64,000 nt of DNA, taken from assembly GCA_963675785.1 (NCBI GenBank), contig OY776562.1, positions 1,376,001 to 1,440,000 on the forward strand, read 5' to 3'. Below are positions 49,162 through 63,826 of this stretch, in pieces. Both the position numbers and the translations under genes were made by a program. Below the pieces are notes generated by a model, which saw only the letters and a program-made list of their open reading frames with translations, had not been told where the DNA came from and did not search any database. Origin of the DNA: Anaerolineae bacterium. GTDB taxonomy: Bacteria > Chloroflexota > Anaerolineae > UBA1429. Position 1 is the stretch's first letter. Each line of letters begins with the position of its first letter.

Positions 49162-50787
49162 CTATTGACTCTCTACAAAAACCAGGGCCGCCTCGTAGCG
49201 TGCTTCCACCTGTTCTTTCAACTCTTCGATCTCATTCTCAAAGGCTGTCGTGCTGCCCTCTTCTTGTTCAACATAAGGCTCAATCAGCGCGGCATAGTAC
49301 GCGTAAATCTCACTCATTCGCTCTGGGTTGAACACCTCTTCGGCCACCTCGCGCACATCCACCACATATTGTGCTTGATACACCGGATCATCCATCAGAT
49401 AGCGAATCAGCGGCCATTGGTCACTCACCGAATCCAAATCAAGGGACAATGAAGAGCCGTTCGGCCCGCTGTTGGCCGACATGGCCTCGTTGTTGTCCCA
49501 CGGTATCCAGGTGAGCAGTCCTGTTGAGGGATCGTTGTACAGATAATAATTGTGGCTCATCTTGCCATAGGTATCCCAGTTTTGTATCAGCGTGTTGGTG
49601 GCCAAATAGCGCAGAAACTCGTCCACATCGAACACCGCCTCCAGCCCCTCACGCCAGGCCGCCGCGTCAGTCGTGCGCGTATCCGCATGGAGCGCCGCAT
49701 ACAAAGCCTCGATGTCGCTGTAATCAGCCTCGTCCTGGTTGGTTTCCTTGTCGAAATCCTCTTCGTTGAACGTCCCCTCGGCCAATGTTGCACCATCACC
49801 CGTGGGTTTATATACATTGCCAGAATCATCCTCGAACTGGGTTTCGATTACCGTGTCGTCCACCACTTCCACCATGGTGTAAAGCCCCCAGTACTCGGCG
49901 CCATCGCCGTGATCCACATAGACTGCATAATAAGCCGTATACGCCGCGGGTACACCGGCATCGCGAAACACATCCGCCGCCACTTTTTCTCGCAAATAGG
50001 AATCATCCTTATAACAAGGTGAAAGAGTGAGCTGCTTGAACCCGTAAAAACGCTGATCGTCGATCGTAGGATAAACGTCCTCAAACTCGTCGAAATCCAG
50101 CTTGAGCGGGAACTTGGTACTACTCGATGACCAAATGCTCTTCAGGCTTGAATTCCCCTTGAATCGTACGCCCACATATTCCCAGGTGTTGTTCTCAAAG
50201 GTGATGGTACAGGTCACCCAGTCTGTATTCTCAGAAAGGTCATCCATCACACCACCATCGTTGCCCCCGCCGCTCTGCCCAGGGTTCTGCGTCAGTGCCA
50301 CGCTGGTTTTGGTCCCAGTGGCAACTATCGCCTCATCGTCCTCAGTATCGAGCAAGGCCCCCGGGCGATTCCTTCCACTGCTACCACTACCCTGCTCACC
50401 ATAGAGCTCCTCCATGTTGCCCAGCAGCGATTGCCAACTCTCGGCATCGATGGTAATGAGGATCTCATTCACGGCATCCTGCGGAAACACCACATCATAG
50501 TCGGGGTCAACATCGTTGCTGTGCGATGCCTCCGTCCATCCCGCCGGGCGCTCCACCTCATCCGAATCGGTTATCTCATCGATCTCGCTAGCATCGTCAA
50601 CAGCAGAGGTGGTTATCACGGTTGGCACAGCAGTGCTGGTAGCCGCAGAAACGGCAACCGCCTCTGTCGTAGAGGCGGTGCCATCACTATCTATAGGGGT
50701 TGCGCAGGCTAGCACCTGAGACATCACAAGTAACAGCGCGATGACGGGCCCCAGTCGGCCAAACGGCTTTTTCGTGATTCTAGTCAT
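49162..50787 (-). CDS. CotH kinase-family lipoprotein
   Basis: VGVRFKGNSS, LKLDFD, D.SYLRE, GLY..VE, NWD.Y....HNYYLY, WIPWD; lipobox VLAC; start uncertain (50787-50796). Confidence 0.9.
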   Translation of the reverse strand: MTRITKKPFGRLGPVIALLLVMSQVLACATPIDSDGTASTTEAVAVSAATSTAVPTVITTSAVDDASEIDEITDSDEVERPAGWTEASHSNDVDPDYDVVFPQDAVNEILITIDAESWQSLLGNMEELYGEQGSGSSGRNRPGALLDTEDDEAIVATGTKTSVALTQNPGQSGGGNDGGVMDDLSENTDWVTCTITFENNTWEYVGVRFKGNSSLKSIWSSSSTKFPLKLDFDEFEDVYPTIDDQRFYGFKQLTLSPCYKDDSYLREKVAADVFRDAGVPAAYTAYYAVYVDHGDGAEYWGLYTMVEVVDDTVIETQFEDDSGNVYKPTGDGATLAEGTFNEEDFDKETNQDEADYSDIEALYAALHADTRTTDAAAWREGLEAVFDVDEFLRYLATNTLIQNWDTYGKMSHNYYLYNDPSTGLLTWIPWDNNEAMSANSGPNGSSLSLDLDSVSDQWPLIRYLMDDPVYQAQYVVDVREVAEEVFNPERMSEIYAYYAALIEPYVEQEEGSTTAFENEIEELKEQVEARYEAALVFVESQ

Positions 50788-51406
50788 CGTCATCATCGGA
50801 TTTAGCGACCATGTCGGGGCTAGTTTCATCCCATGTATCCGTGGGGTTGTCGTAATACACCGTCACCTTGGCAGTATCGTGCATAAAGTCCACCGCCCCA
50901 ATCTCCACACGGGCAATATTGAGCCCCGTGCGCATCCGCAGATCGGCGACAAGCTCAGCTCGTCGTTCGGGAACAATCAACTCGATGCGCTCATAGGTGA
51001 TGTTCTTCTTGCACTCGAACTTGAATCCCCATTCTTTCTCCAGCGCATAAATAACAACCAGCAGCAGAGCATTTGCCCCAATGATCTCAGCCCACAAGCC
51101 CTCGGTATTCAAGCCAGAGGCGTTGATGATGGGCAGAGAGATCACTACAAACAAGTAGGTCATCTCCCGAATGGGAATGGGATCGGTGCGATAGCGCAGC
51201 ACGCCAAAGATGGCAAAAAGCCCAAACCCCACACCCACACTCAGATCGGTAGATCCCATAAAGGTCAAGATGAAAAAGATGACACTGCTGAACGAGATAA
51301 AGCTAAACACATAGCCCTTGTTATGGTTCGCCGGATAATAGATGAGCCGCACCAGAACAATAGTAGATACAAGGTTCACCAAGAAACAAAGCAAGAATTG
51401 GCTCAT
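50780..51406 (-). CDS. DUF4956 membrane protein
   Basis: GFGLFAIFGVLRYRTDP..IREMTYLF, DL..RTGL.I..VEIG.VDF. Confidence 0.88.
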   Translation of the reverse strand: MSQFLLCFLVNLVSTIVLVRLIYYPANHNKGYVFSFISFSSVIFFILTFMGSTDLSVGVGFGLFAIFGVLRYRTDPIPIREMTYLFVVISLPIINASGLNTEGLWAEIIGANALLLVVIYALEKEWGFKFECKKNITYERIELIVPERRAELVADLRMRTGLNIARVEIGAVDFMHDTAKVTVYYDNPTDTWDETSPDMVAKSDDDDD

Positions 51407-51414
51407 GATTTCTC

Positions 51415-52191
51415 CTAATTCGTAATCCGGCTGACAGCCGTAAGACTGGGTTTAAACCGATTGCTCTTGACCGGGTAGAGCAAACTGGTGCCGATGCAGT
51501 ACTTGGAAAAACTCATCGGGTGGTACCCCAGTTTCCTCAAGGCGCTGACAAAAGGAGAATCCTTATGGCGTTCGACTTGCTTGACCTCGGCAATTGCTAC
51601 TCCACCCAATTCTAGGGTCTCTGAAAAATCATAGGGACGGTAGTCTAGGTCAATATCCAGCGTAATCCGCTCCTGATACTGGCTGTTCACTAGTGTAATC
51701 CGCGTAAAGCTGTTCCACAGCTTGGGCTCCAAAGGATCTACCCCAAGCGGAAGGCGGCTCTTCACAAAAGAGTTGCTCTCATCATCCAACACAATCGCAT
51801 CAGCCGGCTGCCTGGACTTGCAAGTGCGCCCGAGCGGCGTCTTGTGCTTGATCTCGATAAAGGAGAGCTGATTGGCCAAATATTCACGCGTGCGAACCTT
51901 GTAGCGGTTGGACGCGCCATTGTGATGCTGCCGGTAAAAATAGAACGAGTCCGTATCGTAATAAAGGTTGCAATAGGGATTGAGCCGGTAGCCGTTGACC
52001 TCCAACACGGAATAGTCAGCTTGAACCACCGATAGCGTATCAAGCAGCGCGGCTTGTGATAGGACATACTTGGTATCAACGCGATCCATCAGGCCGGCAC
52101 TCTGGTTCACGTCAGAGAGGCTGATGGGCTTGAATTGAGCCACAAGATCCTGAATTCGTTGTGTTGCAGCATAGTTTGGGTACGTCGTCAT
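51415..52191 (-). CDS. VTC (polyphosphate polymerase-like, CYTH fold) domain protein
   Basis: R.DTKY, LYYDT, RYKVR.REY, FIEIK.K, ERITLD.DL, IAEVK, FSKYC. Confidence 0.9.
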   Translation of the reverse strand: MTTYPNYAATQRIQDLVAQFKPISLSDVNQSAGLMDRVDTKYVLSQAALLDTLSVVQADYSVLEVNGYRLNPYCNLYYDTDSFYFYRQHHNGASNRYKVRTREYLANQLSFIEIKHKTPLGRTCKSRQPADAIVLDDESNSFVKSRLPLGVDPLEPKLWNSFTRITLVNSQYQERITLDIDLDYRPYDFSETLELGGVAIAEVKQVERHKDSPFVSALRKLGYHPMSFSKYCIGTSLLYPVKSNRFKPSLTAVSRITN

Positions 52192-52476
52192 TTTGGTCCC
52201 CCGCTTTGAACTCCACACAACCATTGTAACCACCGATTGTTGGCCATGTGTTTCTCATTTGTTTAGATTTAGTTGGATAGCGGGGTCAAAATGGGTTTGT
52301 TGAGAGAGAAAAGGAGAATTTTTCTGGCAAGGTCAGGCAAGTCGCTGCTGGTTCTGAGGGGTAATATGCACTTGGCTATCCGCGAATAGCGGAACTGCGC
52401 CATGCAGAAAAGAAGGTGGTGACAGTCTTTTGAACTGTCACCACCCCGAGTACTTACTTGATCCTTGACACAACAA

Positions 52477-54531
52477 CTATGCGCCGTGCTCCTCTGGATT
52501 GTCCCAGTAGAATTGTTGGGGATTCTGCAGCTCCTCATCTTCGACTGGATCATCATAAGGCACACCATCAATGAAATTGGTAAGGCCGTTTTTGACGATA
52601 ACGAGCTGAGGCAGCTGTCCCAGCAAACCAATTGCTGGTAGTTCCTCGATCCAAATGTCCAAGATCTGCTTAAAAAGGGCATTCTGTGTATCAGAATCTG
52701 CTTCAACCTGGATTTGCTCAGACAGATCCCAAACATCCCAAATCCAGTGCCCCTCGGGAGGCTCTTCAGCGTTAGGGTCGGTGGGATCGCTATACCACAT
52801 CGTCCAGGCCCCTGCCCACGGGCGATAGACTGCAACGCCATAGACATCGGCAGTAAAGTTGCCAGTAGCAGCCAATGGCAGCACAGTGCGATCCATGGAC
52901 CAGTTGTTGACTTCGAGCTCGTTGGCTTGGCAATGCTCATAGAAAAGAGAACGTTCGGCATATTTGTACTGCGCCTTGATGCCTACTACGGACAGATACT
53001 GAATGGCCATCTGTGCCGCATCCTCGTTGGGATCACCCGTCTCATAGAACATCTCGATGGTAAAGCTGATAGGACCAGAACCATCCTTGTAGAGCCGATA
53101 GCCTTCATCATCCTTGGTGGTGTACCCAAGACCATCCAAGAGTTCGTTGGCTTTGTCCGGGTCATAATCGAGGTAACTGTTGGATAATTCGGGATAATAG
53201 TTCGGAGAACCCTCGATAGGACTGAACTGTCGCGGTGTGCCCAAGCCGTTGAACGCCAGTTCGTTGATTGATTCTCGATCCATCGCGTAGGACATGGCAA
53301 TACGAGCATCACGCTCCATAAAGAACTCGCGCAACTGGAGGTTCTTGCAAGTCATGTTTGGTATGAGGATCGGGTGACCAGCACTGAGCAATTGTCCTGT
53401 AGTGTATTCTCCGCTTTCTTCATTTTCTTTGAAAAGCGTATAGTTGCCAACCTCAGTATGCCTCGCCTGATAGTCAATCTCTCCATTGACAATCCACATG
53501 TTGAACACATCAGCGGATTCGAACAATCGATGATTGACCGTATCGATATAAGGCAATTGCTGACCTGCTTCATCCACTTGCCAGAAATAAGGATTTCGGC
53601 TCATGGTAAAGAGTTCGTCCTGCATCGAGTTGTCCATCTTCCAGACGTAGAGCACCGGCACTTCGGGATTTAGCAACCAGTTCACACGATCGGCATAGTA
53701 GAGATCCCAGGTAGAGAATCCCGCAGCAGTCGCCGTAGCAGTTGCCACGTCCTCACCAATGAAATCGGGGTGGAATTGCTCGTAATAATGGCTTGGAACA
53801 AAGGGCAAGTTGCGAGTCAGCTCGTATACGAGCAAAGGCTTGGGCTCACCATATTTGAGAACGATTGTAAAGTCATCAGGCGTCTCGAGTTCTGCAGCCT
53901 GTCTAGGAGTGCCCCACCCCCACCTCTCGATCATAGCAGGTGTAAGCACTTCGTTCCCCAAAACATGATCCCAATACCAGCGCGCTGCCGCCGAAGTCAA
54001 AGGTTCGCCATCAGACCATCGGGTGCCTTTGCGGAGATAAATGGTCCATTCACTGCCGTCGTCGCTGATCTCCCAAGATTCGGCCAAATTGGTACGTATA
54101 CTTAGATCGAGATTGAACCACAAGAGCCCCTCATTACTCAGCTTCGTGGGGCCGTTGCCGTCGGATACACCTTTGAAAGCACGGCGGAGCACACCACCAT
54201 ATTGGCCCACAGATTCGTTCACCGGGCAAACACAAGGGTTCTCTGGAAGTCGCTCACTGACGGGCGGCAAATCACCAGAAGCAACCAACTCTGCCAGCAT
54301 TGGTGATTCAGAATAAGCAACTACGCTAGCCGTAGGCTCAACAACGGCCGTAGCTTCTGGCGCACTAGTCGCTTCTGGCGCTGATGTCGCCGCAGATGCG
54401 CTAGTAGCTGTTGGTGCGACAGTAGCGGTAGGTTCAGGTGTGGCCGTAGCTTCAGTACAAGCTGCTGCCACAGTCGCAGCCGTTACGAGCGCACTTACGC
54501 GCACAAACTCTCTACGAGTTATTTGTCTCAT
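52477..54531 (-). CDS. ABC transporter substrate-binding protein (family 5), Tat-type lipoprotein
   Basis: ITRREFV + AAAC, ESPML..LV..G.LPPV.ERLP..P, LRKG.RWSDG.P.T, RNPYFW.VD..G.QLPYID. Confidence 0.92.
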   Translation of the reverse strand: MRQITRREFVRVSALVTAATVAAACTEATATPEPTATVAPTATSASAATSAPEATSAPEATAVVEPTASVVAYSESPMLAELVASGDLPPVSERLPENPCVCPVNESVGQYGGVLRRAFKGVSDGNGPTKLSNEGLLWFNLDLSIRTNLAESWEISDDGSEWTIYLRKGTRWSDGEPLTSAAARWYWDHVLGNEVLTPAMIERWGWGTPRQAAELETPDDFTIVLKYGEPKPLLVYELTRNLPFVPSHYYEQFHPDFIGEDVATATATAAGFSTWDLYYADRVNWLLNPEVPVLYVWKMDNSMQDELFTMSRNPYFWQVDEAGQQLPYIDTVNHRLFESADVFNMWIVNGEIDYQARHTEVGNYTLFKENEESGEYTTGQLLSAGHPILIPNMTCKNLQLREFFMERDARIAMSYAMDRESINELAFNGLGTPRQFSPIEGSPNYYPELSNSYLDYDPDKANELLDGLGYTTKDDEGYRLYKDGSGPISFTIEMFYETGDPNEDAAQMAIQYLSVVGIKAQYKYAERSLFYEHCQANELEVNNWSMDRTVLPLAATGNFTADVYGVAVYRPWAGAWTMWYSDPTDPNAEEPPEGHWIWDVWDLSEQIQVEADSDTQNALFKQILDIWIEELPAIGLLGQLPQLVIVKNGLTNFIDGVPYDDPVEDEELQNPQQFYWDNPEEHGA

Positions 54532-54649
54532 TTACCCTTCTCCTCCTTCTTCTGATCACTGCGCTACTCCAATAGTAGCGGCGCGAATCAGAAGGACTGA
54601 ACAAAACCTGCTACTCTGTAATACTCCTCACCCCCTTTACTATGGCGAA

Positions 54650-56086
54650 TCAGTGGTGTACTTGCACGTCAAAGCCAGCTACCTCGCCGAGATCTTTGAC
54701 CTCTTCCACATGATCGCCGTACACAACCGCCAGATGGTGTCCGTAACATCCCTTGGCAAGCGCCTGACGAAACTCGCGGACGCCCCCTTCAACTCGGTAA
54801 AAGATTGCCGGGCTGCAATAGGTTTCTCTGAATTCGCAACCAAGGATCTCTGCACGTGCGACAATCATGCTGTCGCCACGGCGATTGAAACGCCCCATTG
54901 TCACGACCTTTGTATCCCTTGCGGCCATGTCCACTTGGACTTTGGTTCCCCAGCCTTCTTGCGTAAAGTGCCCCAGGAAATAAGGCATTTCAGGCTGCTC
55001 AAAACCTTCCATCTTGAGACCTGGGACAGCATGATGAATCTCTAGAATATCTTTATCGCAAAGCTGATCCAGATCAGACATACCCATCTGTTTTAGGGTT
55101 CTGGTGCCCTTGGGAACAAGCATTGGGTTGCCCATAAATACGGATTGTTCCGTTAGGTACATCAAAACCATTGTCGCCATGAGGACATTGAGGTCCTCTT
55201 CACAAGAAGATGGAATCCTGTCATCTTTTAGGAGAGAATGTGTAAGGCAAGGCGTGCACTTGGTCTGCATCGGATATCGAGAAGCACATAGCTCTTTGCA
55301 TGAAGTAGTAAAGGCGTTGCATCCGAACTTTTCCATCAGAGCCCTTACTGCTTCATAATACCTGACATCTTGCTGTATCCACTCCGCCTTGATACGGCTC
55401 TCCGTTGCTCCATTGACCAGGTTTTCAACCATACTGAGTGTATCGCTGGTCGCTTCCATCTTTTCCATTTGGTCAAAGACGTTGCGAAAAGTCATGCGGT
55501 TGTTGCGAATTCCGTATCTTTGATACAAGCCGTACAGGTCAGGGATGCTGCTGTTCACGCTGGCTGGAATCTGCTCCGTAGCCGAAAGAATGAGAATCTT
55601 GGTGTTGGCAATCGCTTTGCGCACCTGAAGCAGCTTGATCAGCTGATTGAATTCCTCATAATCATGCGCCATATAGGCTTCTGATCCCGTATCGCGATAA
55701 AAAGCGACGAGATCGATGGGGGTAGGCCCCAGATTGATCATCGAGATCGGCTTATGAAAGCGCTCGATCCCCGGCACGCGATAGGTGATGAGGTATAGAT
55801 CTACCTCAGGGGCATCCTTTGCCAGCTTTTCGAATTCGCTCTCAAGTACAACAAAAGTCTCGTCGAATTCTATATAAGCAGGCTCCATCAGGTTGGCATA
55901 CTTGCATAGGTTATCGCGCAGTTCTCGCGTCCATATGGCAAAATGTTCCTTGCCAGCCCTGATCTCATAAGATGGGGAAAGCTGCTCAGGCGTACCAACA
56001 CGGCACGGCCCCTCCCAAACACCAGAGTGCACCATGTTGCTGAACACGGGTTTGACGTTAACCTTGACATCCATGGCATGCAGCAT
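54650..56086 (-). CDS. L-fucose/L-arabinose isomerase-fold protein, Cys-rich
   Basis: Y.A...L.EK.GCNAF, CEED, FMGNP, VT..R, GHH.AVVYGD. Confidence 0.72.
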   Translation of the reverse strand: MLHAMDVKVNVKPVFSNMVHSGVWEGPCRVGTPEQLSPSYEIRAGKEHFAIWTRELRDNLCKYANLMEPAYIEFDETFVVLESEFEKLAKDAPEVDLYLITYRVPGIERFHKPISMINLGPTPIDLVAFYRDTGSEAYMAHDYEEFNQLIKLLQVRKAIANTKILILSATEQIPASVNSSIPDLYGLYQRYGIRNNRMTFRNVFDQMEKMEATSDTLSMVENLVNGATESRIKAEWIQQDVRYYEAVRALMEKFGCNAFTTSCKELCASRYPMQTKCTPCLTHSLLKDDRIPSSCEEDLNVLMATMVLMYLTEQSVFMGNPMLVPKGTRTLKQMGMSDLDQLCDKDILEIHHAVPGLKMEGFEQPEMPYFLGHFTQEGWGTKVQVDMAARDTKVVTMGRFNRRGDSMIVARAEILGCEFRETYCSPAIFYRVEGGVREFRQALAKGCYGHHLAVVYGDHVEEVKDLGEVAGFDVQVHH

Positions 56087-56170
56087 AACGATCGTTCCTC
56101 CTCAATCACATGATTATTCTATAGTCATAAAGCCAGAATTTTTGCGGTTTCTCATGCAATAAGTTTGCAT

Positions 56171-56593
56171 TTATTCAGATTTATCGAGTTGTTTTAGCGC
56201 ATACGCTCGAATCTCCTCTGCTATCTTGCCCAATCCAATGCGGCGCTCCCCTAAAAGCTGGCCGAGCCCTATCTCATCCAGAAACCACATCGATGTACTT
56301 AGAACCTCTTCGGGTTTCCTTCCACTGAAGAGCTCAGCGATCATGCCAGCGAGTCCTTTTACAATGAGGGCATCACTATCGCAGCGCACTTTTACAAGCC
56401 CGGCCTCCATAGTGATGTCTACCCACAAGTTGGATTGACAACCTTGGATGCGGTTTGCGTCCTGACGAATCTGCTCGTCGAAAGCAGCCCCCTCTGACAA
56501 TGCTCTGTTGAGCAAATAGTCATAGCGGTCTAGCTCGTCTCCAAGCATGGAAAAAAGATGTACGTATTCCTCCTGTTGCTCATCTAGTGTCAT
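56171..56593 (-). CDS. sufE: SufE sulfur-acceptor protein
   Basis: I.GCQS.LW, DSDALIVKGL, FSG..PEE, R..G. Confidence 0.93.
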   Translation of the reverse strand: MTLDEQQEEYVHLFSMLGDELDRYDYLLNRALSEGAAFDEQIRQDANRIQGCQSNLWVDITMEAGLVKVRCDSDALIVKGLAGMIAELFSGRKPEEVLSTSMWFLDEIGLGQLLGERRIGLGKIAEEIRAYALKQLDKSE

Positions 56594-57818
56594 GAGCTCT
56601 TCTTCCGTATTTGCCCAGTATCCACTCTAGCTCGTCACAAAGAGCATCAACCTCAGCGCGCGTATTGTAAAAGCAAAGAGACACCCTCACGGTGCCCTCT
56701 ACGCCCAGGCGCCGCATCACAAGCTGGGCACAGTGTTCGCCGCACCGCGTGGCAATCCCCCGTGCTCCCAAGAGTGTGCTGATATCAAAAGGATGCATCC
56801 CTTCCGCAACGAACGAGATAACAGGAACACAAGGTTGCTTTGCCCCAAACAAGCAGAGGCCGGGAATTTTCCCCAGGTGCTCCCGGGCATAAGCGGTCAG
56901 TTCTCTCTCACATCTTGCTATCCCCTCCAAACTAATATCTTGTAGATAGTGAATAGCTGCCTGAAGCCCCAGCACATCCGCAACGTTAGGCGTTCCCGCC
57001 TCGAACCTATGCGGCAGGCCCTGATAGCTGTTATCCAGCCATGCAGTCCCAAGTCGATCGATCATGTCTCCGCCGCTTTGGTAAGGGGCCATCCTTTCCA
57101 TGTAACTGCTTTTCCCATAGAGCACGCCCACACCCATAGGGCCATAGAGCTTGTGGCCAGAGAAGCAAAAGAAATCGCAATCCAGCTCTTGCACATTCGT
57201 CCGACCGTGTTGAATGCTCTGCGCTCCATCCACCAACACAGGCACACCTTTTTCATGGGCCAGACGAATGACCTCTTTGAGCGGCGGGATAATGCCTATG
57301 CTGTTCGAAGCGCCCGTAATCGCCACAATCGCCGTCTTTTCGTCCAGCACGTCTCGAAAGGCGGTCAGATCGAGGCCATCCTCACAGGTGAACGGAACCA
57401 GGCGTAACTGGCCTTGCTTCTTCCAACATGCCGCTTGCCAGGGTAAGAGATTCGAGTGATGCTCGAGCTCTGTGGCAATCACATTCCCGCCCGGTTTGAG
57501 AAAAACATCACAAAAACTAGAGGCTACCAAGTTCAAAGCCTCTGTGACGCCCTTGGTAAAAACGATCTCCTCTGACTGCGCAGCACCGATGAAATCACGC
57601 ACGCTTGCCCGGGCCGCCTCGTAGAGTTTGGTGGCCTCGGTGCTCTGCGGATAGGTTCCGCGATGGACGTTGGCGTTTTGCTCCGTATAGAATCGCACCA
57701 ACGCATCGATGACAGCTTGTGGCTTTTGCGTTGTCGCCGCGTTATCCAAATAGATCAACCGCTCGTTACTTTTTGCCAACAAAGGAAAATCCTGCCGGAT
57801 TTCATTCACATCGAACAT
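56580..57818 (-). CDS. sufS: SufS-type (group II) cysteine desulfurase
   Basis: YLDNAATTQKP, ANVHRG, EHHSN, VDGAQ, FSGHKLYGP, FEAGTPN, R.GEHCA. Confidence 0.93.
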   Translation of the reverse strand: MFDVNEIRQDFPLLAKSNERLIYLDNAATTQKPQAVIDALVRFYTEQNANVHRGTYPQSTEATKLYEAARASVRDFIGAAQSEEIVFTKGVTEALNLVASSFCDVFLKPGGNVIATELEHHSNLLPWQAACWKKQGQLRLVPFTCEDGLDLTAFRDVLDEKTAIVAITGASNSIGIIPPLKEVIRLAHEKGVPVLVDGAQSIQHGRTNVQELDCDFFCFSGHKLYGPMGVGVLYGKSSYMERMAPYQSGGDMIDRLGTAWLDNSYQGLPHRFEAGTPNVADVLGLQAAIHYLQDISLEGIARCERELTAYAREHLGKIPGLCLFGAKQPCVPVISFVAEGMHPFDISTLLGARGIATRCGEHCAQLVMRRLGVEGTVRVSLCFYNTRAEVDALCDELEWILGKYGRRAHDTR

Positions 57819-57824
57819 GCTTGA

Positions 57825-58244
57825 CTACTTTCGTTGAGCACAGTACGCTGGATACAGTTGGTCTACCAAGTCCTCGATCGTCACAATTTCTGCAGCCTTG
57901 TCGTCATCCAGCATTACATTCAACTGCCGCTCCACATTCATGATGAAGAGAACCTTCTTATCGAGGGCAGAGTTTGTCTCATGGCAGTCGTACTTTTCCA
58001 CACGCTCAATTGCCGCCGAATAATCCCCTGCATCTTTCGGGTGTATGTTCTGCTTTATGCTCAGAATCGCTAACCGGTAGAGATTGTTTTCTCCGGTATC
58101 TGCATCCAGCATGTACTTGGCCAGCAGATACCCCTTGAGATTGAGCAAGAACTCGGATTTGTCACCCGCGCCTAGCTGCAATCTATCCATGTACACCTGA
58201 GCCAATTGGTTGCTTTGCTTGATTCTCTCTGCATAGTCCGACAT
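57825..58244 (-). CDS. Hypothetical protein with acyl-carrier-protein-like C-terminus
   Basis: GAGGTG RBS; C-terminal FIMNVERQLNVMLDDDKAAEIVTIEDLVDQL resembles ACP helices II-IV. Confidence 0.75.
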   Translation of the reverse strand: MSDYAERIKQSNQLAQVYMDRLQLGAGDKSEFLLNLKGYLLAKYMLDADTGENNLYRLAILSIKQNIHPKDAGDYSAAIERVEKYDCHETNSALDKKVLFIMNVERQLNVMLDDDKAAEIVTIEDLVDQLYPAYCAQRK

Positions 58245-58424
58245 AATTCACCTCGTAAGAAACACCATGAACAAGGTAGCAGAGAACAAGAGGATTTTTC
58301 TGACTTTTTAGCCGATTTTCTTTGCGTTGTGTCGTGTCCATCAAAAGGCAAAACAATCTGGGATAGTCTGCTGTGACATCAGAGGCTCGCATAAGGGAAG
58401 TGACTGGAATCGAGGAGGAACACC

Positions 58425-59291
58425 TTGGAACTGGAATATGCCCAATTCAAACAAGAGCTAGAGGGCGATTTTACAATCGAGCACAAAATCACTGCTTCCC
58501 CGGATCAAAATTTCTTTCACATTCATGATCCCTTTGAGATAATGTTTGTGCTATCAGCGGGCGCTGTTTGCCTTGTTGCCGATAAAAAATACCCTGTACC
58601 ACAAAATAGTCTTCTCATCTTTAACAACATGGATCTGCACATGTTCCATCGCAATAAGACCTCCTGCTATGATAGATACATGCTATACTTTCGGCCTGAA
58701 TATATCGAAGATCTTTCCTCCGAACAGACCGATCTTCTGGAATGTTTCTTTTATCGCCCTTTCGAAGACGTCCATCTTGTGCCCCTCGATGAAAATGCTT
58801 CGGCCCAATTGATCCCCCTTCTAGAGCGCGTCTTGGAATGTCGGAATGCTCACGATGCTTCCTACGGGCAGGACCTGAGATTGCGCTTCCTTTTGGGAGA
58901 GCTCTTGCTCTTTGTCAATGAAGCTTACCGAGGCTACCACGGCATTTCCTCTGAAGGCACACCGAGTGACTACCGCCTCGTCTACCCCGTCATCAACTAC
59001 ATCCATCGCCATCTCACCGAAGACTTGACCCTGGATGTGCTCGCCCAAAACGTCTTTCTCAACAAGCACTACCTTTGCGCCCTCTTCAAGGGCGTTACTG
59101 GCATCTCGCCCAAGCAATACGTCATCAACTGTCGCATCATGAAGGCCAAAGAGCTTTTGAGCAAAGGAGTTTCCGTGGAAATGGTTGGCCGGTTGGTAGG
59201 CTATAACAACCTCTCCCATTTCAGCCGCTCCTTCAAACAGCACGCTGGCCTTAGCCCCAAGAAATACGCCATGCAGTTCGATTTAGACTAA
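58425..59291 (+). CDS. AraC-family transcriptional regulator (cupin + double HTH)
   Basis: FHIHD.FEI, YIH.HL.E.LTL..LA, FK..TG.SP..Y, GYNNLSHFSR.FK..G.SP..Y; divergent from suf operon. Confidence 0.93.
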   Translation: MELEYAQFKQELEGDFTIEHKITASPDQNFFHIHDPFEIMFVLSAGAVCLVADKKYPVPQNSLLIFNNMDLHMFHRNKTSCYDRYMLYFRPEYIEDLSSEQTDLLECFFYRPFEDVHLVPLDENASAQLIPLLERVLECRNAHDASYGQDLRLRFLLGELLLFVNEAYRGYHGISSEGTPSDYRLVYPVINYIHRHLTEDLTLDVLAQNVFLNKHYLCALFKGVTGISPKQYVINCRIMKAKELLSKGVSVEMVGRLVGYNNLSHFSRSFKQHAGLSPKKYAMQFDLD

Positions 59292-59326
59292 GTAACCCTT
59301 TTCGCCCTCTCTGCCTCACAAAATTA

Positions 59327-59596
59327 CGCGGATTGAAACCCTCCGCTGATCACACACAAACTCCTCCATCCGCCTCCTCAGCGTGGGGTTTCAACCCCAC
59401 GCCCCCCCACACCCGCCACATAATGGGCCGAATGGGGCGTCGGCTATACATAACGCGTCCTCTGGCCACGCCGCACATCACCACCCTCGCATATCTGCTC
59501 TACCTCCGCAATACATGCTTCCCCTAGGCCCCGCACCGTAGGTGCGGCCGCACCATAGGTGCGACGAGACGCGAGCGACCGCAGGTCGCAAGTCCC
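59327..59596. repeat. Degenerate REP-like cluster (inverted gtttcaa-loop pair and a family B copy)
   Basis: cgcggattgaaaccctccgctg / cagcgtggggtttcaaccccacgc; ctaggccccgcacc...gcgaccgcaggtcgc. Confidence 0.7.
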
Positions 59597-59675
59597 TTCC
59601 CCTCCTCCCCCTTGCACTCCCTCCGTCCCCGCGCTACACTCCCCTCGCCTAACCCATACTAGGAGGTCTGTAACG

Positions 59676-61604
59676 ATGTCGTTAGCCCAATGGAACCCCC
59701 GCGAAATCGAACGCATTCTCGATGAGGCCGGCCCTGTCGCGCTCATGCCGCCCATCACCGATCGCACCACCTGGGAGGCGATGGCCGCCCACGCCGGCGC
59801 CGACCGCGTCGCCGCCGTCATAAAAAAGGCCGAGGGCCTCATGGACGAGCCCATCCCCACCCTCACCGCCAGCCTCTGGCTGGACTTTCAGCGCACCGGC
59901 AACCGCGCCGATTGGGAGCGCGTCCACGGCGCCCGTAGCGCCATGCTCACCACCTTTGTACTGGCCGAAGCGCTGGAGAACAAGGGCCGCTTTCTCGATA
60001 AATGCCTGGACATGATCTGGGCCCACCTGGAGGAATCCTCCTGGGCGCTGCCCGCCCACCAATCCCGCCTCACCGACCGCGACGAGCCCATTGTCGATCT
60101 GGGCGCGGTGATGACCGCCATTGATCTGGCCGAGTTCGACGCCGTCATGGGCCCGGTTATGGATCCCCTGCTGGGCAAGCGCATCCGCGACGAAGTCAAC
60201 GAACGCGTCCTGGTGCCCTACATGGCCCGCCATGATTACAACTGGATGTTCAACGCCGGCGGTGGGCAGGTCAACAACTGGAACGCCGTCTGCAACTGCG
60301 GCTGCATGGCCGCCGCCATGTATCTGCAGCGCGATAACGCCCACACCGCCGAGGTGCTGGCCCGCGGCCTGCGCTCGCTGGACGACTATCTCCTCGGCTT
60401 TGACCCCGACGGCGGCAGCACCGAGGGCCCCGGCTACTGGGAATACGGTTTTGGCCATTACGTCGTCATCGGCGATCTGGTCGAGCGCCGCACCAAGGGC
60501 GCCATCCCCATGCTCCACACCGATCAGGTACGCAACGTGGCCCAGTTCCCCATGCGCACCCGCCTGGCCGGCAACGAGTACGCCACCTTTTCCGATTGCG
60601 ATACCCATGTCGAGCTCAACCGCCCCCTGGTGGCCTTTTTGTCTCGCCGCCTGCAACTGCCGCGGCTGATGGCCCTGGCGAACTGTGAGGCTTACGATCA
60701 CCGCTGGGGCAGCTTGGTGTGGGCCCTGCGCGAGTTCTTGTGGGCTTCGGACCCCACCGATGAGCCCTTGGTCCTCGACGAGCGCAACTGGTTCGGCGGC
60801 ATGGCCTGGATGATCGCCCGCCTCGACCCCACCGATCCCGATGCTATGGTCTTGGCCTGCAAGGGTGGCCATAACGGCGAAATGCACAACCAGAACGACG
60901 TGGGCAGCTTTATCGTCACCGTTGGCGGCGAGTCCATCATCCGCGATCCAGGTCGCGGCCGCTACACCCGCGAGTACTTTGGCGAAAAACGCTACTCCTT
61001 CTGGATCTGCACCAGCAAGAGCCACTCGGTACCCCTGGTCAACGGCGTCGACCAAAGCATCAACCAGGCCGATATGGAGCGCTTCCTTGGGCAGATCGAA
61101 CACGACGACCCCGGCAAAGACATGGCTCGCGCAGCTGAGGGCAAGCGCAAAATGGCGCCTCGCCGCGCCAACATGGGGGCCCAGTTCGCCGCCGATGTCG
61201 TCGAACACATCGAGACATCCTGCGAGGATCGCCTCACCATCGACATGACCAACGTCTATGGCGAGGAAGCCGACCTGGAGCTGCTGCAGCGCAGCACCGC
61301 TCTCTTGCGCAAGGTGCCCGGCGGCCGCGTCACCGTCACCGATACCTACCGCTTCAAGGGCGGCGCCCATCCCTTTGAGAACGCCATCATCACCCTCGTG
61401 CAACCCGAACTCACCGATAATGCCGTCGTGCTCCGCGGCGAAAAAGCCGCTCTGCGCATCACCTGGCAGGGTGCAAAAGAAGTGGTGATCGAGCCGCACA
61501 AAGACGTGGACATGTACGACGGCCTCCGCGACGTCTATCGCATCGCCTTCCGTGCCCCATTGCAAAAAGAGGGCGAAATCAAACTGTCTGTGGAGAGGGC
61601 CTAA
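59676..61604 (+). CDS. Heparinase II/III-like polysaccharide lyase family protein
   Basis: EESSWALPAH, NNWNAVCN, DGG..EG..YW.Y, KGG.N.E.HN.NDVGSF, D.G...YT; AGGAGG RBS. Confidence 0.88.
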   Translation: MSLAQWNPREIERILDEAGPVALMPPITDRTTWEAMAAHAGADRVAAVIKKAEGLMDEPIPTLTASLWLDFQRTGNRADWERVHGARSAMLTTFVLAEALENKGRFLDKCLDMIWAHLEESSWALPAHQSRLTDRDEPIVDLGAVMTAIDLAEFDAVMGPVMDPLLGKRIRDEVNERVLVPYMARHDYNWMFNAGGGQVNNWNAVCNCGCMAAAMYLQRDNAHTAEVLARGLRSLDDYLLGFDPDGGSTEGPGYWEYGFGHYVVIGDLVERRTKGAIPMLHTDQVRNVAQFPMRTRLAGNEYATFSDCDTHVELNRPLVAFLSRRLQLPRLMALANCEAYDHRWGSLVWALREFLWASDPTDEPLVLDERNWFGGMAWMIARLDPTDPDAMVLACKGGHNGEMHNQNDVGSFIVTVGGESIIRDPGRGRYTREYFGEKRYSFWICTSKSHSVPLVNGVDQSINQADMERFLGQIEHDDPGKDMARAAEGKRKMAPRRANMGAQFAADVVEHIETSCEDRLTIDMTNVYGEEADLELLQRSTALLRKVPGGRVTVTDTYRFKGGAHPFENAIITLVQPELTDNAVVLRGEKAALRITWQGAKEVVIEPHKDVDMYDGLRDVYRIAFRAPLQKEGEIKLSVERA

Positions 61605-61682: not shown

Positions 61683-62261
61683 TTACTCCGCTTCATCCAG
61701 CCGAGCCGGGCCGGCAGCGGGCGCATTCCAAAGGGGGGCCAACGCCGCCCGTATCAAGTTCACATCACCCGCTTCCTCCGGACCAACGCGCAGCATCGGC
61801 AAACCTGCTTGTTCTAACACCTGTGCCACCATAGCCTCTTGCTCAGCCCAATCGGGCTCGTCAGGCGAAGGATCGACCAACTGAACGGCCGCTACAGGAT
61901 CCAGCGTATCGGCCGCAAACACCACATAATCCACATGCTTGCGATTCACGCGCTGTTGAGCGACCCACTGGTCGGCATCAGTACCACCAACCGAGACCAA
62001 CAGATCGCCCAGATTGACCCCTATCGCCACTAAACCGCGGTCGCCAACTGCCTCAATCAGCGTGGGGTAAAATTCAGCCCGATGGTGAGGCATAAGGCCA
62101 TGCCCCAGGCAATAGGTCGTCGCATCGGGCAACACATTCACATCTCTCTGTGCACTGGGGAGAGCACGTACTACCTTGAGCACACTCTTTACCGCAAACA
62201 CCACGCCAGCAAGGACGCCGAGTGACACCAGCGTAAAGAACACCATAAAATACGTATCCAT
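61683..62261 (-). CDS. Membrane-anchored DUF2726-like protein
   Basis: N-terminal TM, L....EFY..L, V.LGDLL, KHVDYVV, AGLP.LR. Confidence 0.75.
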   Translation of the reverse strand: MDTYFMVFFTLVSLGVLAGVVFAVKSVLKVVRALPSAQRDVNVLPDATTYCLGHGLMPHHRAEFYPTLIEAVGDRGLVAIGVNLGDLLVSVGGTDADQWVAQQRVNRKHVDYVVFAADTLDPVAAVQLVDPSPDEPDWAEQEAMVAQVLEQAGLPMLRVGPEEAGDVNLIRAALAPLWNAPAAGPARLDEAE

Positions 62262-62529
62262 GCCCTCTCCTTCAGGTGATTGCCAAGCAACTATCCCATT
62301 ATGCCAAACATATCATCCAGCGCAAGAGCCGCAACCCCAGAACGCGTCGCCCTGTTCGCTCACTGCAGGCGCAGGCTTAGCCTGCTTCTTGCCCTCGTAT
62401 TCCCTATCTCCGCAAAAGACTTGATTTCTCCCTTTGTTGTTTCCCTATTTTATCACTCAATCTGGAGCCTTGTTTTCATATCCCCAGGGAATATCACCTT
62501 TTGACCATAGGATGCATGTAAACAGAATC

Positions 62530-62602
62530 TTGAATTCAGGCGGAGCAGCAGTATAATACGATGACAAAATGAATGACAGAATTCGTGACATTTTATCCGA
62601 CA
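62530..62602 (+). promoter_or_regulatory. Promoter of fic gene plus four GACA-core repeats at 12-bp period
   Basis: TTGAAT-16-TATAAT (62530-62557); YGACA at 62562, 62574, 62586, 62598. Confidence 0.6.
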
Positions 62603-62641
62603 TTTTTCAAGACTCAATGAATCCATCATGGAGGGAATGAA

Positions 62642-63826
62642 GTGTCATATCTCCCAAGTCACCCATGGATCACCTTCGCACTTGATCTGCGCGCTTTCAA
62701 ACCCGATACCTGGGTTTTGCTAGGAGCCATTCAAAGCAAATTTGAGCATCTGGCTGGCGTCCCCTTGCTTCCAAACACAGCTAAAGAATTGCATTTACTT
62801 TCTTTAGCTCGCGGCGTGCGTGCCACAACCGCCATCGAAGGAAATACCCTATCGCAGAATCAAATCGAGCAGCTCATCAAAGGCGAATTAGAGGTACCCA
62901 AGTCTAAGGAGTACCTCAAGACCGAGGCGCAGAACATTGTCGATGCTTGTAACGAAATTGGGGAACAGATTTTACTAGCCGATGATGAAATCACACCGCT
63001 TACGGTTGAGGATATCTTGCACTATAACGCCTTGGTACTAAAAGACTTGAAGCTGGACGAGGGAGTAATTCCGGGAAAGATACGCACCTACTCTGTGATC
63101 GTAGGCAATTATCGAGGGGCGCCAGCATCGGATTGCCACTCTCTTCTGGAAAAGTTGTGCGCCTGGCTAGCTCAGGATTGGCACACAGCTATGCCTTGGC
63201 TGAATACCTGCGGTATAGCTGTGCTCAAAGCCATTCTGGCACAACTCTACATCAATTGGATTCACCCCTTTGGCGATGGCAATGGCCGAACTGCTCGATT
63301 GGTTGAGTTCCGACTTTTACTTGCCCGCGGCGTGCCAGATATTGCTGCCCATTTGCTGTCTAACCACTACAATGAGACACGTTCTGAATACTATCGTCAG
63401 CTTGCTCACTCTTCAGCTCAAGGCCCAGATGGTGTAGCCTCGTTTATCCAATATGCTCTGCAAGGGTTGGCCGACGGACTGGATGAAGAGATCCATCAAG
63501 TACAACAAGACCAGCTCCGCGTTCACTGGCGCGAACTGGTGTTCACGAGTTTCTCATCGAGCGACTCAAAGGTGTCAAAGCGCCGACGTGACCTGATTTT
63601 GGCTATATCAGCAAAACCGGAAGGCATAGTTGCCTCAGATGCCGAGGGACTAACACCTGCTCTCTCCGCTGCGTATGCAAAACGATCTGCTCGTACACTT
63701 GCCCGTGACCTTGAGGAGCTCGAAAGTATGGGGCTTCTCGTGCGAACAAAAGAGCACCTGCGTGCCAATATGGAAATGGCCCTCGCCTTTGGAGCACGGC
63801 GACGAACTGGCCAGATACGTTCCTGA
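62642..63826 (+). CDS. Fic-family protein with C-terminal wHTH
   Basis: ATTAIEGN inhibitory-type motif, HPFGDGNGRTAR, C-terminal S.RTLARDL.EL...GLL. Confidence 0.92.
   Translation: MSYLPSHPWITFALDLRAFKPDTWVLLGAIQSKFEHLAGVPLLPNTAKELHLLSLARGVRATTAIEGNTLSQNQIEQLIKGELEVPKSKEYLKTEAQNIVDACNEIGEQILLADDEITPLTVEDILHYNALVLKDLKLDEGVIPGKIRTYSVIVGNYRGAPASDCHSLLEKLCAWLAQDWHTAMPWLNTCGIAVLKAILAQLYINWIHPFGDGNGRTARLVEFRLLLARGVPDIAAHLLSNHYNETRSEYYRQLAHSSAQGPDGVASFIQYALQGLADGLDEEIHQVQQDQLRVHWRELVFTSFSSSDSKVSKRRRDLILAISAKPEGIVASDAEGLTPALSAAYAKRSARTLARDLEELESMGLLVRTKEHLRANMEMALAFGARRRTGQIRS

Follow-up and report, generated by a model that had tools for sequence, protein, structure and literature searches.

A stretch of 64,000 nucleotides from an Anaerolineae bacterium (GenBank assembly GCA_963675785.1, contig OY776562.1, positions 1,376,001 to 1,440,000 of the forward strand; hereafter the window, in whose numbering positions are given) carries a cassette of four genes that encode p139, a small protein with the predicted fold of an acyl carrier protein (ACP), the cysteine desulfurase SufS, its persulfide acceptor SufE, and ISO, a cysteine-rich protein of the L-arabinose isomerase/L-fucose isomerase (AraA/FucI) fold. 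The linkage of these four genes across genomes is far beyond chance, no curated family covers ISO or p139, and the p139 cassette is rare in sampled genomes. The explanation that we favour, with a probability of roughly 0.45, is that the cassette provides a dedicated supply of sulfur for a cysteine-ligated, sulfide-containing metal cofactor in ISO, or for its repair.

The p139, SufS, SufE and ISO genes are co-conserved

The core of the locus comprises the following genes, in order of transcription:
57825..58244, minus strand: p139, 139 amino acids, ACP fold; no Pfam or NCBIfam match
56580..57818, minus strand: SufS, type II cysteine desulfurase; TIGR01979, 491.3 bits (cut-off 475.1); PF00266, E 3.6e-129
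56171..56593, minus strand: SufE persulfide acceptor; PF02657, 96 bits (cut-off 27)
54650..56086, minus strand: ISO, 478 amino acids, cysteine-rich AraA/FucI fold, assigned by fold and a profile bridge; no curated family

The initial annotation of the window, made from its sequence alone, had tied sufS and sufE to the isomerase-fold gene, and had named their separation from this family in other genomes, or the loss of its cysteines, as findings that would speak against its reading. We found instead that the four genes travel together. In a first scan, p139 and SufS lay beside ISO in 16 of 20 loci, most of which also contained SufE. A second scan seeded with an ISO alignment yielded 77 distinct loci (designated with the prefix L below), including 52 whose ISO is at least 50% identical to that of the window. 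The complete p139, SufS and SufE set was present in 36 of these 52, and L070, which encodes a p139-SufS fusion and no SufE, brings the number with p139 and SufS to 37; in three others (L006, L033 and L053) SufE or SufS lies at a contig edge. Cassette parts were thus found in 40 of the 52 loci and were missing from 12. Among relatives with 30-49% identity, none of 21 loci had p139 or SufE, and a separate clade from Eubacterium spp., at 27-29% identity, again had two or three cassette parts in all four of its loci. In every locus examined, members of the p139 family adjoin an ISO relative.

The linkage extends to gene fusion. SufE is fused to ISO in P0072 (626 amino acids) and P0056 (606 amino acids), and p139 is fused to SufS in L018/L070, L046, P0132, P0178 and P0253. 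Both fusions occur at L046, where the whole system consists of two proteins, p139-SufS and SufE-ISO. No ISO fusion longer than 838 amino acids was found, which is weak evidence. On a quick maximum-likelihood tree of ISO, the presence or absence of the cassette required 7 changes compared with a mean of 25.2 for shuffled labels, and all 500 shuffles needed more. The main cassette clade of this tree mixes Bacillota and Spirochaetota, which points to horizontal movement of the cassette.

The 12 loci of at least 50% identity that lack the cassette are heterogeneous. L032 is too short to judge, and L029, from Atribacteria, offers 1.3 kb of upstream sequence without SufE. L035, L048 and L081 belong to Bacteroidota, and the genomes of the latter two encode a canonical SufE elsewhere and no p139. 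L056 comes from a metagenome-assembled genome (MAG) labelled Nitrospiraceae, and L065 and L078 from MAGs of Bacilli. L061, L063 and L082 are second ISO copies in genomes whose other copy is linked to the cassette (pairs L033/L061, L052/L063 and L042/L082), and at L047 p139 and SufE are found on another contig of the same genome. Tandem ISO paralogues were also seen at L034 (two copies of 483 amino acids), L047, L071 and L085, with ISO-like open reading frames flanking the L071 and L085 copies.

ISO has a predicted AraA/FucI fold and conserved cysteines

The assignment of ISO to an isomerase fold, already made in the initial annotation, was borne out by structure prediction. Pfam gave no match, and NCBIfam only a weak one to the sulfoquinovose isomerase SftI (E 4e-7; 29 bits, cut-off 700); public records name ISO homologues 'hypothetical' or 'L-fucose isomerase-like', and a protein atlas placed ISO only with unnamed or 'fucose isomerase-like' clusters. 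An AlphaFold2 model built with 27 homologues was confident, with a predicted local distance difference test score (pLDDT) of 93.4 and a predicted template modelling score of 0.92. Using this model, Foldseek retrieved L-arabinose isomerases at E ~2e-20 (template modelling scores 0.67-0.71, ~12% identity) and L-fucose/D-arabinose isomerases at E ~5e-13 to 1e-12, with template modelling scores of 0.61-0.71 over all matches.

Sequence profiles connected ISO to AraA by an indirect route. The ISO profile retrieved no AraA or FucI chain among PDB sequences, where its best match was an unrelated acetyltransferase (E 0.0039), and a direct local hhalign comparison with AraA gave a match of only 29 columns (E 0.054). 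A FucI-like paralogue from the same genome, whose gene at ~1116 kb neighbours those of a class II aldolase and an FGGY kinase, provided a bridge: hhalign related ISO to the family of this paralogue at E 6e-25, and that family to AraA at E 6e-27. Together, the Foldseek matches and the profile bridge place ISO in the AraA/FucI superfamily by its predicted three-domain fold.

All residue pairings between ISO and AraA were read through this bridge, in the numbering of E. coli AraA. According to one account, four residues are essential in E. coli AraA, namely E306, E333, H350 and H450 (PMC3520711), and another names F279 among the residues that position the substrate (PMC11172353). ISO Glu296, His352 and His451 pair with E306, H350 and H450, the ISO motif NAFTT pairs with HAFTT of AraA, and Gly319/Asn320 pair with E333/D334, such that the E333 carboxylate is replaced. 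Two of the ISO cysteines fall at or next to active-site positions, Cys263 pairing with F279 and Cys295 with G305. From this alignment, ISO retains three of the four essential AraA residues, has lost the second carboxylate and has gained cysteines at or beside the active site; with three of four residues kept and no Pfam AraA or FucI model at threshold, it lies outside AraA proper. The CEED (residues 295-298) and HH (351-352 and 450-451) motifs, which the initial annotation had read as retained metal-binding motifs, are present in the translation, and that view is largely right: it holds for Glu296, His352 and His451, and the counterpart of AraA E333 is the exception.

The cysteine-containing motifs listed in the same annotation were likewise all found in the translation (WEGPCR at 24-29, CKELC at 263-267, CTPC at 277-280 and YCSP at 423-426), and their cysteines are conserved in relatives. 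Among 27 ISO homologues with 50-74% identity, C28, C256, C263, C267, C280, C295 and C424 are invariant. Across 77 ISO relatives, down to 27% identity, C256, C263, C280 and C295 were kept in all 77, and C28 and C267 in 76. For the C-terminal part, counts cover the 60 of 77 rows that extend this far, the other 17 having ended before it; C424, H352 and H451 were kept in all 60. ISO has six to seven near-invariant cysteines in all, two of them at positions aligned with the AraA active site.

SufS and SufE form an additional desulfurase system

Both SufS and SufE retain the residues expected of an active relay. All 15 cassette SufS sequences compared have the lysine that binds pyridoxal phosphate (K223, in SGHK) and the catalytic Cys363 (in HCA), and with a score above the TIGR01979 cut-off the protein belongs to that family. 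Gly51-Cys52 of SufE is invariant in 15 cassette SufE sequences, and the conserved acceptor cysteine, together with a score above the cut-off, places it in PF02657. The two genes overlap by 14 nt, and SufE is present in 36 of the 37 loci with p139 and SufS; on these grounds we predict that the cassette SufS works with a SufE-type acceptor. One alternative assignment for SufS, as a family 2A encapsulin cargo desulfurase (NF041166), was rejected since its score of 513.9 bits lies below the cut-off of 800 and the match spans positions 225-620 of the profile only.

The initial annotation had also remarked that the region contains no sufBCD, iscU or tRNA-thiolation gene. This is correct, and such genes are found elsewhere in the single-contig genome of 3.2 Mb: one locus encodes an Rrf2-type regulator, an acetyltransferase, an IscS-like desulfurase, IscU and MnmA, and a SufC-SufB/D pair is encoded at another. 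The cassette SufE is the sole PF02657 match in the genome. As IscS-IscU-MnmA and SufC-SufB/D are encoded elsewhere and the only SufE is in the cassette, SufS-SufE appears to be an extra, dedicated system and not the housekeeping one. The genome also contains a selenium-utilization locus at ~351-356 kb (L023), which encodes a YedE-like transporter, a class-V lyase, a selenium/sulfur carrier (PF11823) and a SelD-like protein of the AIR-synthase family.

p139 is a predicted carrier-fold protein with an invariant cysteine

The AlphaFold2 model of p139 is all-helical (pLDDT 85.4). Foldseek returned nothing at E <= 0.001, and the weak ACP rows at E ~0.3 included ACP chains from entries of the NFS1-ISD11-ACP type. 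In a VIA-align comparison with 48,161 chains, roughly three in four of the 50 best rows named an acyl or peptidyl carrier protein, with Z values up to 9.0 (83 of 85 target residues aligned) and root mean square deviations of 2-3 A; a Z below ~13 is weak for helical proteins. The model thus has the four-helix arrangement of acyl carrier proteins, and the label 'ACP-like' given to this gene in the initial annotation is supported by fold only. In a protein atlas, a lead scoring below 0.9 pointed to a cluster in which 18% of members have a PP-binding domain.

Conservation within the family sets p139 apart from true acyl carriers. Among 1.84 billion sequences, 260 representatives were recovered at E <= 0.001, the more distant half of which matches, by blastp, the p139 genes of the Eubacterium clade. 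Only M1 and C87 are invariant in 33 diverse members. In the model, Cys87 caps the N-terminus of a helix (residues 87-108) that would be the counterpart of ACP helix II. There is no invariant serine, neither a phosphopantetheine-accepting serine in a DSL motif nor a PF00550 score above the cut-off was found, and of 24 relatives scanned with PF00550, two came close to its cut-off of 20.8 bits, with 19.7 bits at most. Without a conserved serine at the helix of Cys87, a phosphopantetheine arm is unlikely.

p139 always adjoins SufS and is sometimes fused to it. A predicted complex of the two proteins scored 0.16 against a mark of 0.32, a result that counts neither for nor against binding. The family was found in none of 401 genomes from a Clostridia-centred class sample, and among 401 genomes of the class to which the window belongs only the genome of the window had it; a single-protein search with P0213, a distant relative, gave no match in genome or metagenome contigs.

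Sulfur supply to an ISO cofactor as a candidate function

We propose that SufS would take its sulfur from L-cysteine and hold it in persulfide form on Cys363, and that SufE would take up this persulfide on Cys52 and hand the sulfur straight to ISO. ISO itself would be a catabolic enzyme of the AraA/FucI fold acting on a sugar or sugar acid, in which the former Mn site of Glu296, His352 and His451 would be ringed by the invariant Cys295, Cys263, Cys267, Cys280, Cys28 and Cys424. The delivered sulfur would build or repair the ISO cofactor, most likely an iron-sulfur (Fe-S) cluster serving as a Lewis acid. p139 would act with SufS through its single invariant cysteine, as an accessory, a second persulfide carrier or a resolving thiol. 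The four-gene unit usually lies under a divergent AraC-type regulator and beside a variable transporter. The fusions and the constant gene order argue for a transfer of sulfur from SufE to ISO and for a partnership between p139 and SufS.

The relatives without a cassette bear on this proposal in two ways. The cassette is missing beside each of the 21 relatives at 30-49% identity and beside 12 of the 52 at 50% or above, yet these proteins keep every cysteine. As these proteins retain their cysteines in sugar operons that lack a donor, the cysteines are most simply explained as ligands of a cofactor intrinsic to ISO, serving the enzyme itself and not stoichiometric sulfur transfer. The same observation weighs against a strict reading, as cysteines that are equally conserved in loci with no desulfurase nearby do not depend on a private relay. 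Several further points weigh in the same direction. Neither SufE nor p139 was found in G003 and G005, two MAGs of unstated completeness that encode ISO relatives, which indicates that the ISO family can do without this relay; SufE is missing from one cassette locus, L070; and the cassette includes no scaffold, iron donor or reductase. Moreover, the spacing of the central cysteines, C-x6-C-x3-C-x12-C-x14-C, fits no Fe-S motif that we can name, and cysteine-bound zinc or another metal could still occupy ISO.

An alternative, which we regard as improbable, is that ISO is a sulfurtransferase, with sulfur passing from SufS through SufE, and possibly p139, to an ISO cysteine and on to a thio-sugar or another thiolated metabolite, or with the reverse reaction, a desulfuration. 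A complete persulfide relay with two cysteine carriers beside ISO, and its fusion to SufE in some relatives, would suit such an enzyme, as would the missing equivalent of AraA E333, given that classical ene-diol isomerization may then not be its reaction, and the gene similar to ThiF/TcdA that follows ISO at the single locus L007. Against this, the same cysteines occur in all 21 relatives at 30-49% identity, in ordinary sugar-catabolic operons with no sulfur donor, and the AraC control and import systems look catabolic. The second ISO copies without a cassette (L033/L061, L052/L063 and L042/L082) are better explained by shared maturation, and the cassette has no conserved adenylating or activating enzyme. 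The initial annotation had combined a sulfur-based cofactor and thio-sugar chemistry in a single proposal; the genetic linkage and the conserved cysteines sustain its sulfur-related core, and the conservation of these cysteines in loci with no desulfurase nearby weakens the thio-sugar part.

More doubtful is the suggestion that the ISO cysteines are structural or bind a plain metal ion, for instance Zn, Fe(II) or Ni, and that SufS, SufE and p139 serve ISO in a way other than cofactor sulfur supply, such as persulfidation of a regulatory or protective cysteine or repair of an oxidized site. It would account for cysteines that are conserved irrespective of the cassette, for the AraA-like metal site that E296, H352 and H451 still form, and for the missing scaffold gene. 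Yet five cysteines within 40 residues and two more elsewhere are many for one metal site, the family is found almost only in anaerobes (as read off record titles), which fits an oxygen-labile cluster, and the SufE-client fusions known to us concern an Fe-S client (PMC5890173). That adjacency means nothing for ISO, and that SufS-SufE-p139 is a general module similar to CsdA-CsdE which shares a mobile island with it, is already disfavoured and very improbable. The cassette does cross phyla (Bacillota and Spirochaetota) and move horizontally, and it is rare, as the p139 counts of 0/401 and 1/401 attest, but mere co-travel is at odds with the SufE-ISO fusions, the constant order of the genes, the renewed linkage of a distant ISO clade to p139, SufS and SufE, and the position of p139 beside an ISO relative wherever it was examined. 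Dedicated sulfur supply to an ISO cofactor remains the explanation that we favour.

Comparison with known sulfur-delivery systems

The closest precedent is SufE3 of Arabidopsis, a fusion of a SufE domain with the quinolinate synthase NadA; as published, NadA is active only with this SufE domain, which reconstitutes its [4Fe-4S] cluster (PMC5890173). In both cases SufE is attached to, or encoded beside, a single client, would receive its persulfide from a desulfurase of the SufS type and would serve the cofactor of that client. The systems differ in that the client here has the AraA/FucI fold and is not NadA, the SufE of the window is a separate gene, the cassette also includes the desulfurase and an ACP-fold protein, and the ISO cluster is only proposed.

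Accessory desulfurase systems dedicated to particular clients include CsdA-CsdE(-TcdA/CsdL) of E. coli and NifS-NifU. As in these, a second or third desulfurase and an acceptor of its own are encoded in a small operon, beside a housekeeping system; unlike them, the cassette has a client with a sugar-isomerase fold and no U-type or A-type scaffold, and a ThiF-like gene accompanies it only at L007. In the eukaryotic NFS1-ISD11-ACP complex, an ACP is physically coupled to a cysteine desulfurase. p139 recalls this arrangement as a small helical protein of predicted ACP fold that is tied to a desulfurase, here through adjacency and the p139-SufS fusions. It departs from it by its invariant cysteine and its lack of a phosphopantetheine serine; moreover, no LYR protein was recognized in the cassette, and the desulfurase is a type II SufS. 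With the Mn-dependent aldose-ketose isomerases AraA, FucI and SftI, ISO shares the predicted three-domain fold, Glu296, His352 and His451, the NAFTT motif, and the occurrence of distant relatives in sugar operons, and it differs in its identity of ~12%, the replacement of E333, the linkage to a desulfurase and what appear from the alignments to be six to seven invariant cysteines at the site.

Our literature search, which left subscription journals and supplements outside its scope, found no paper on the cassette, and none that connects a protein resembling fucose or arabinose isomerase with a cysteine desulfurase, SufE or Fe-S. As a desulfurase system dedicated to a client, the cassette is known in kind; there is a genuine possibility that its cofactor or p139 is of a new kind. 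A bolder proposal, which we consider unlikely, is that anaerobes have turned the AraA/FucI fold into the host of a new sulfur-containing metal cofactor at the position of Mn2+, assembled in place by a scaffold-free relay from SufS to SufE, and that p139, an ACP fold with a cysteine in place of the phosphopantetheine arm, belongs to a new class of proteins that partner desulfurases or carry persulfides, as a bacterial equivalent of ISD11-ACP. Were ISO to have an Fe-S or sulfide cofactor, this would be new cofactor chemistry for a classic Mn-dependent sugar-isomerase fold and a second, bacterial case of scaffold-free, client-specific delivery by SufE. p139, for its part, would stand for a new family in which a carrier fold bears a cysteine and is linked to desulfurases. 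The cassette is found in gut and oral anaerobes, including Enterocloster, Hungatella, Eubacterium ramulus and Treponema, so the ISO substrate may be a sugar or sugar acid derived from the diet or the host.

Locus organization and regulation

Apart from the four core genes, the locus includes the following features:
58425..59291, plus strand: AraC-family regulator; HTH_18 69.7 bits, HTH_AraC 63.2 and AraC_binding 37.6, all above the Pfam cut-offs
58245..58424, 180 bp: divergent intergenic region and presumed promoter/operator, read from the sequence
52477..54531, minus strand: lipoprotein-type substrate-binding protein (SBP) of the SBP_bac_5 family; PF00496, E 1.5e-55
52413..52447, minus strand: terminator-like hairpin of 15 pairs with a T-rich tail, just past the SBP stop codon; pattern match only

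Gene calls agreed with the arrangement described initially, in which araC is divergent from genes for an ACP-like protein, SufS, SufE, an isomerase-fold protein and an SBP. The minus-strand genes are closely spaced and would be transcribed in the order p139, SufS, SufE, ISO, SBP. The regulator has a C-terminal double helix-turn-helix and an N-terminal ligand domain of the AraC type, and belongs to the AraC/XylS family. By tblastn, 24 of the 37 cassette loci have a homologue of this gene next to the cassette, and Pfam identified one more, at L034; at L001 a LacI-type regulator stands in its place. No minus-strand sigma-70-like site was listed in 58245..58424, no terminator-like site was listed in the 118-nt gap between ISO and SBP, and the region from 52000 to 59600 had no Rfam match; totals of promoter-like and terminator-like sites in the region were no higher than in shuffled sequence. 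The hairpin at 52413..52447 likely marks the end of the operon.

Inclusion of the SBP in the conserved unit, as the initial annotation had implied, did not hold. No homologue of it was found in the 77 related loci, and its own genome encodes at least 16 paralogues with 45-55% identity, which together mark it as a local addition to the cassette. The gene is probably co-transcribed with the cassette yet lineage-specific. It is part of a large expansion of SBP_bac_5 lipoproteins whose long linkers are rich in Ala, Thr and Pro, seen at 52477-54531 of the window and at ~1609-1631 kb and ~1735-1745 kb of the genome.

Genomic context of ISO relatives and neighbouring genes of the window

Apart from the regulator, the surroundings of the cassette vary from one locus to the next. 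TRAP transporters follow the cassette at L007, L009, L011, L012 and L028, and an ABC system of the Peripla_BP_6 type at L002; class II aldolases are found at L016 and L018, and a ribokinase-like PfkB together with a GFO oxidoreductase at L001. ISO relatives that lack the cassette also occur in sugar contexts, with RbsD/FucU and a sugar ABC transporter at L083, PfkB and an HpcH aldolase at L077, GH31 and a true FucI at L075, and PL8, MFS, TIM-barrel and GFO genes at L065. Those of Bacteroidota at L010 and L020 are accompanied by GntR, MFS and a set of the 3-keto-glycoside type.

Some loci exhibit additional genes related to sulfur or metals. In Enterocloster lavalensis, the operon that contains the cassette and an ABC transporter ends with a nickel pincer cofactor-dependent isomerase of group 22 (L002:14168-15337; 498 bits with NF052515, above its cut-off of 400), which would be the second sulfur-cofactor-dependent enzyme of that locus. 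In a Lachnospiraceae locus, an E1 gene similar to ThiF/TcdA directly follows ISO (L007:2345-3100), an arrangement that recalls CsdA-CsdE-TcdA. Iron-dependent repressors of the DtxR type adjoin ISO relatives without a cassette at L075:8609-12553, together with FeoA and FeoB, and at L085:7288-7794, an anecdotal hint that iron may be required.

Within the window, genes for a CotH kinase-like protein, a DUF4956 protein and a VTC-domain protein are clustered right after the operon terminator (49162-52233, minus strand) and seem unrelated to the cassette. Directly 3' of araC lies a heparinase II/III-like gene (59559-61604, plus strand; weak PF07940 match, E 6e-6), whose true start is probably near 59673 and whose G+C content is 60-66% compared with ~50% in its surroundings. 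It has five paralogues in the genome, some close to clusters of SBP paralogues. At 61683-63826, genes encoding DUF2726 and Fic-domain proteins may mark an islet of the mobile or defence type.

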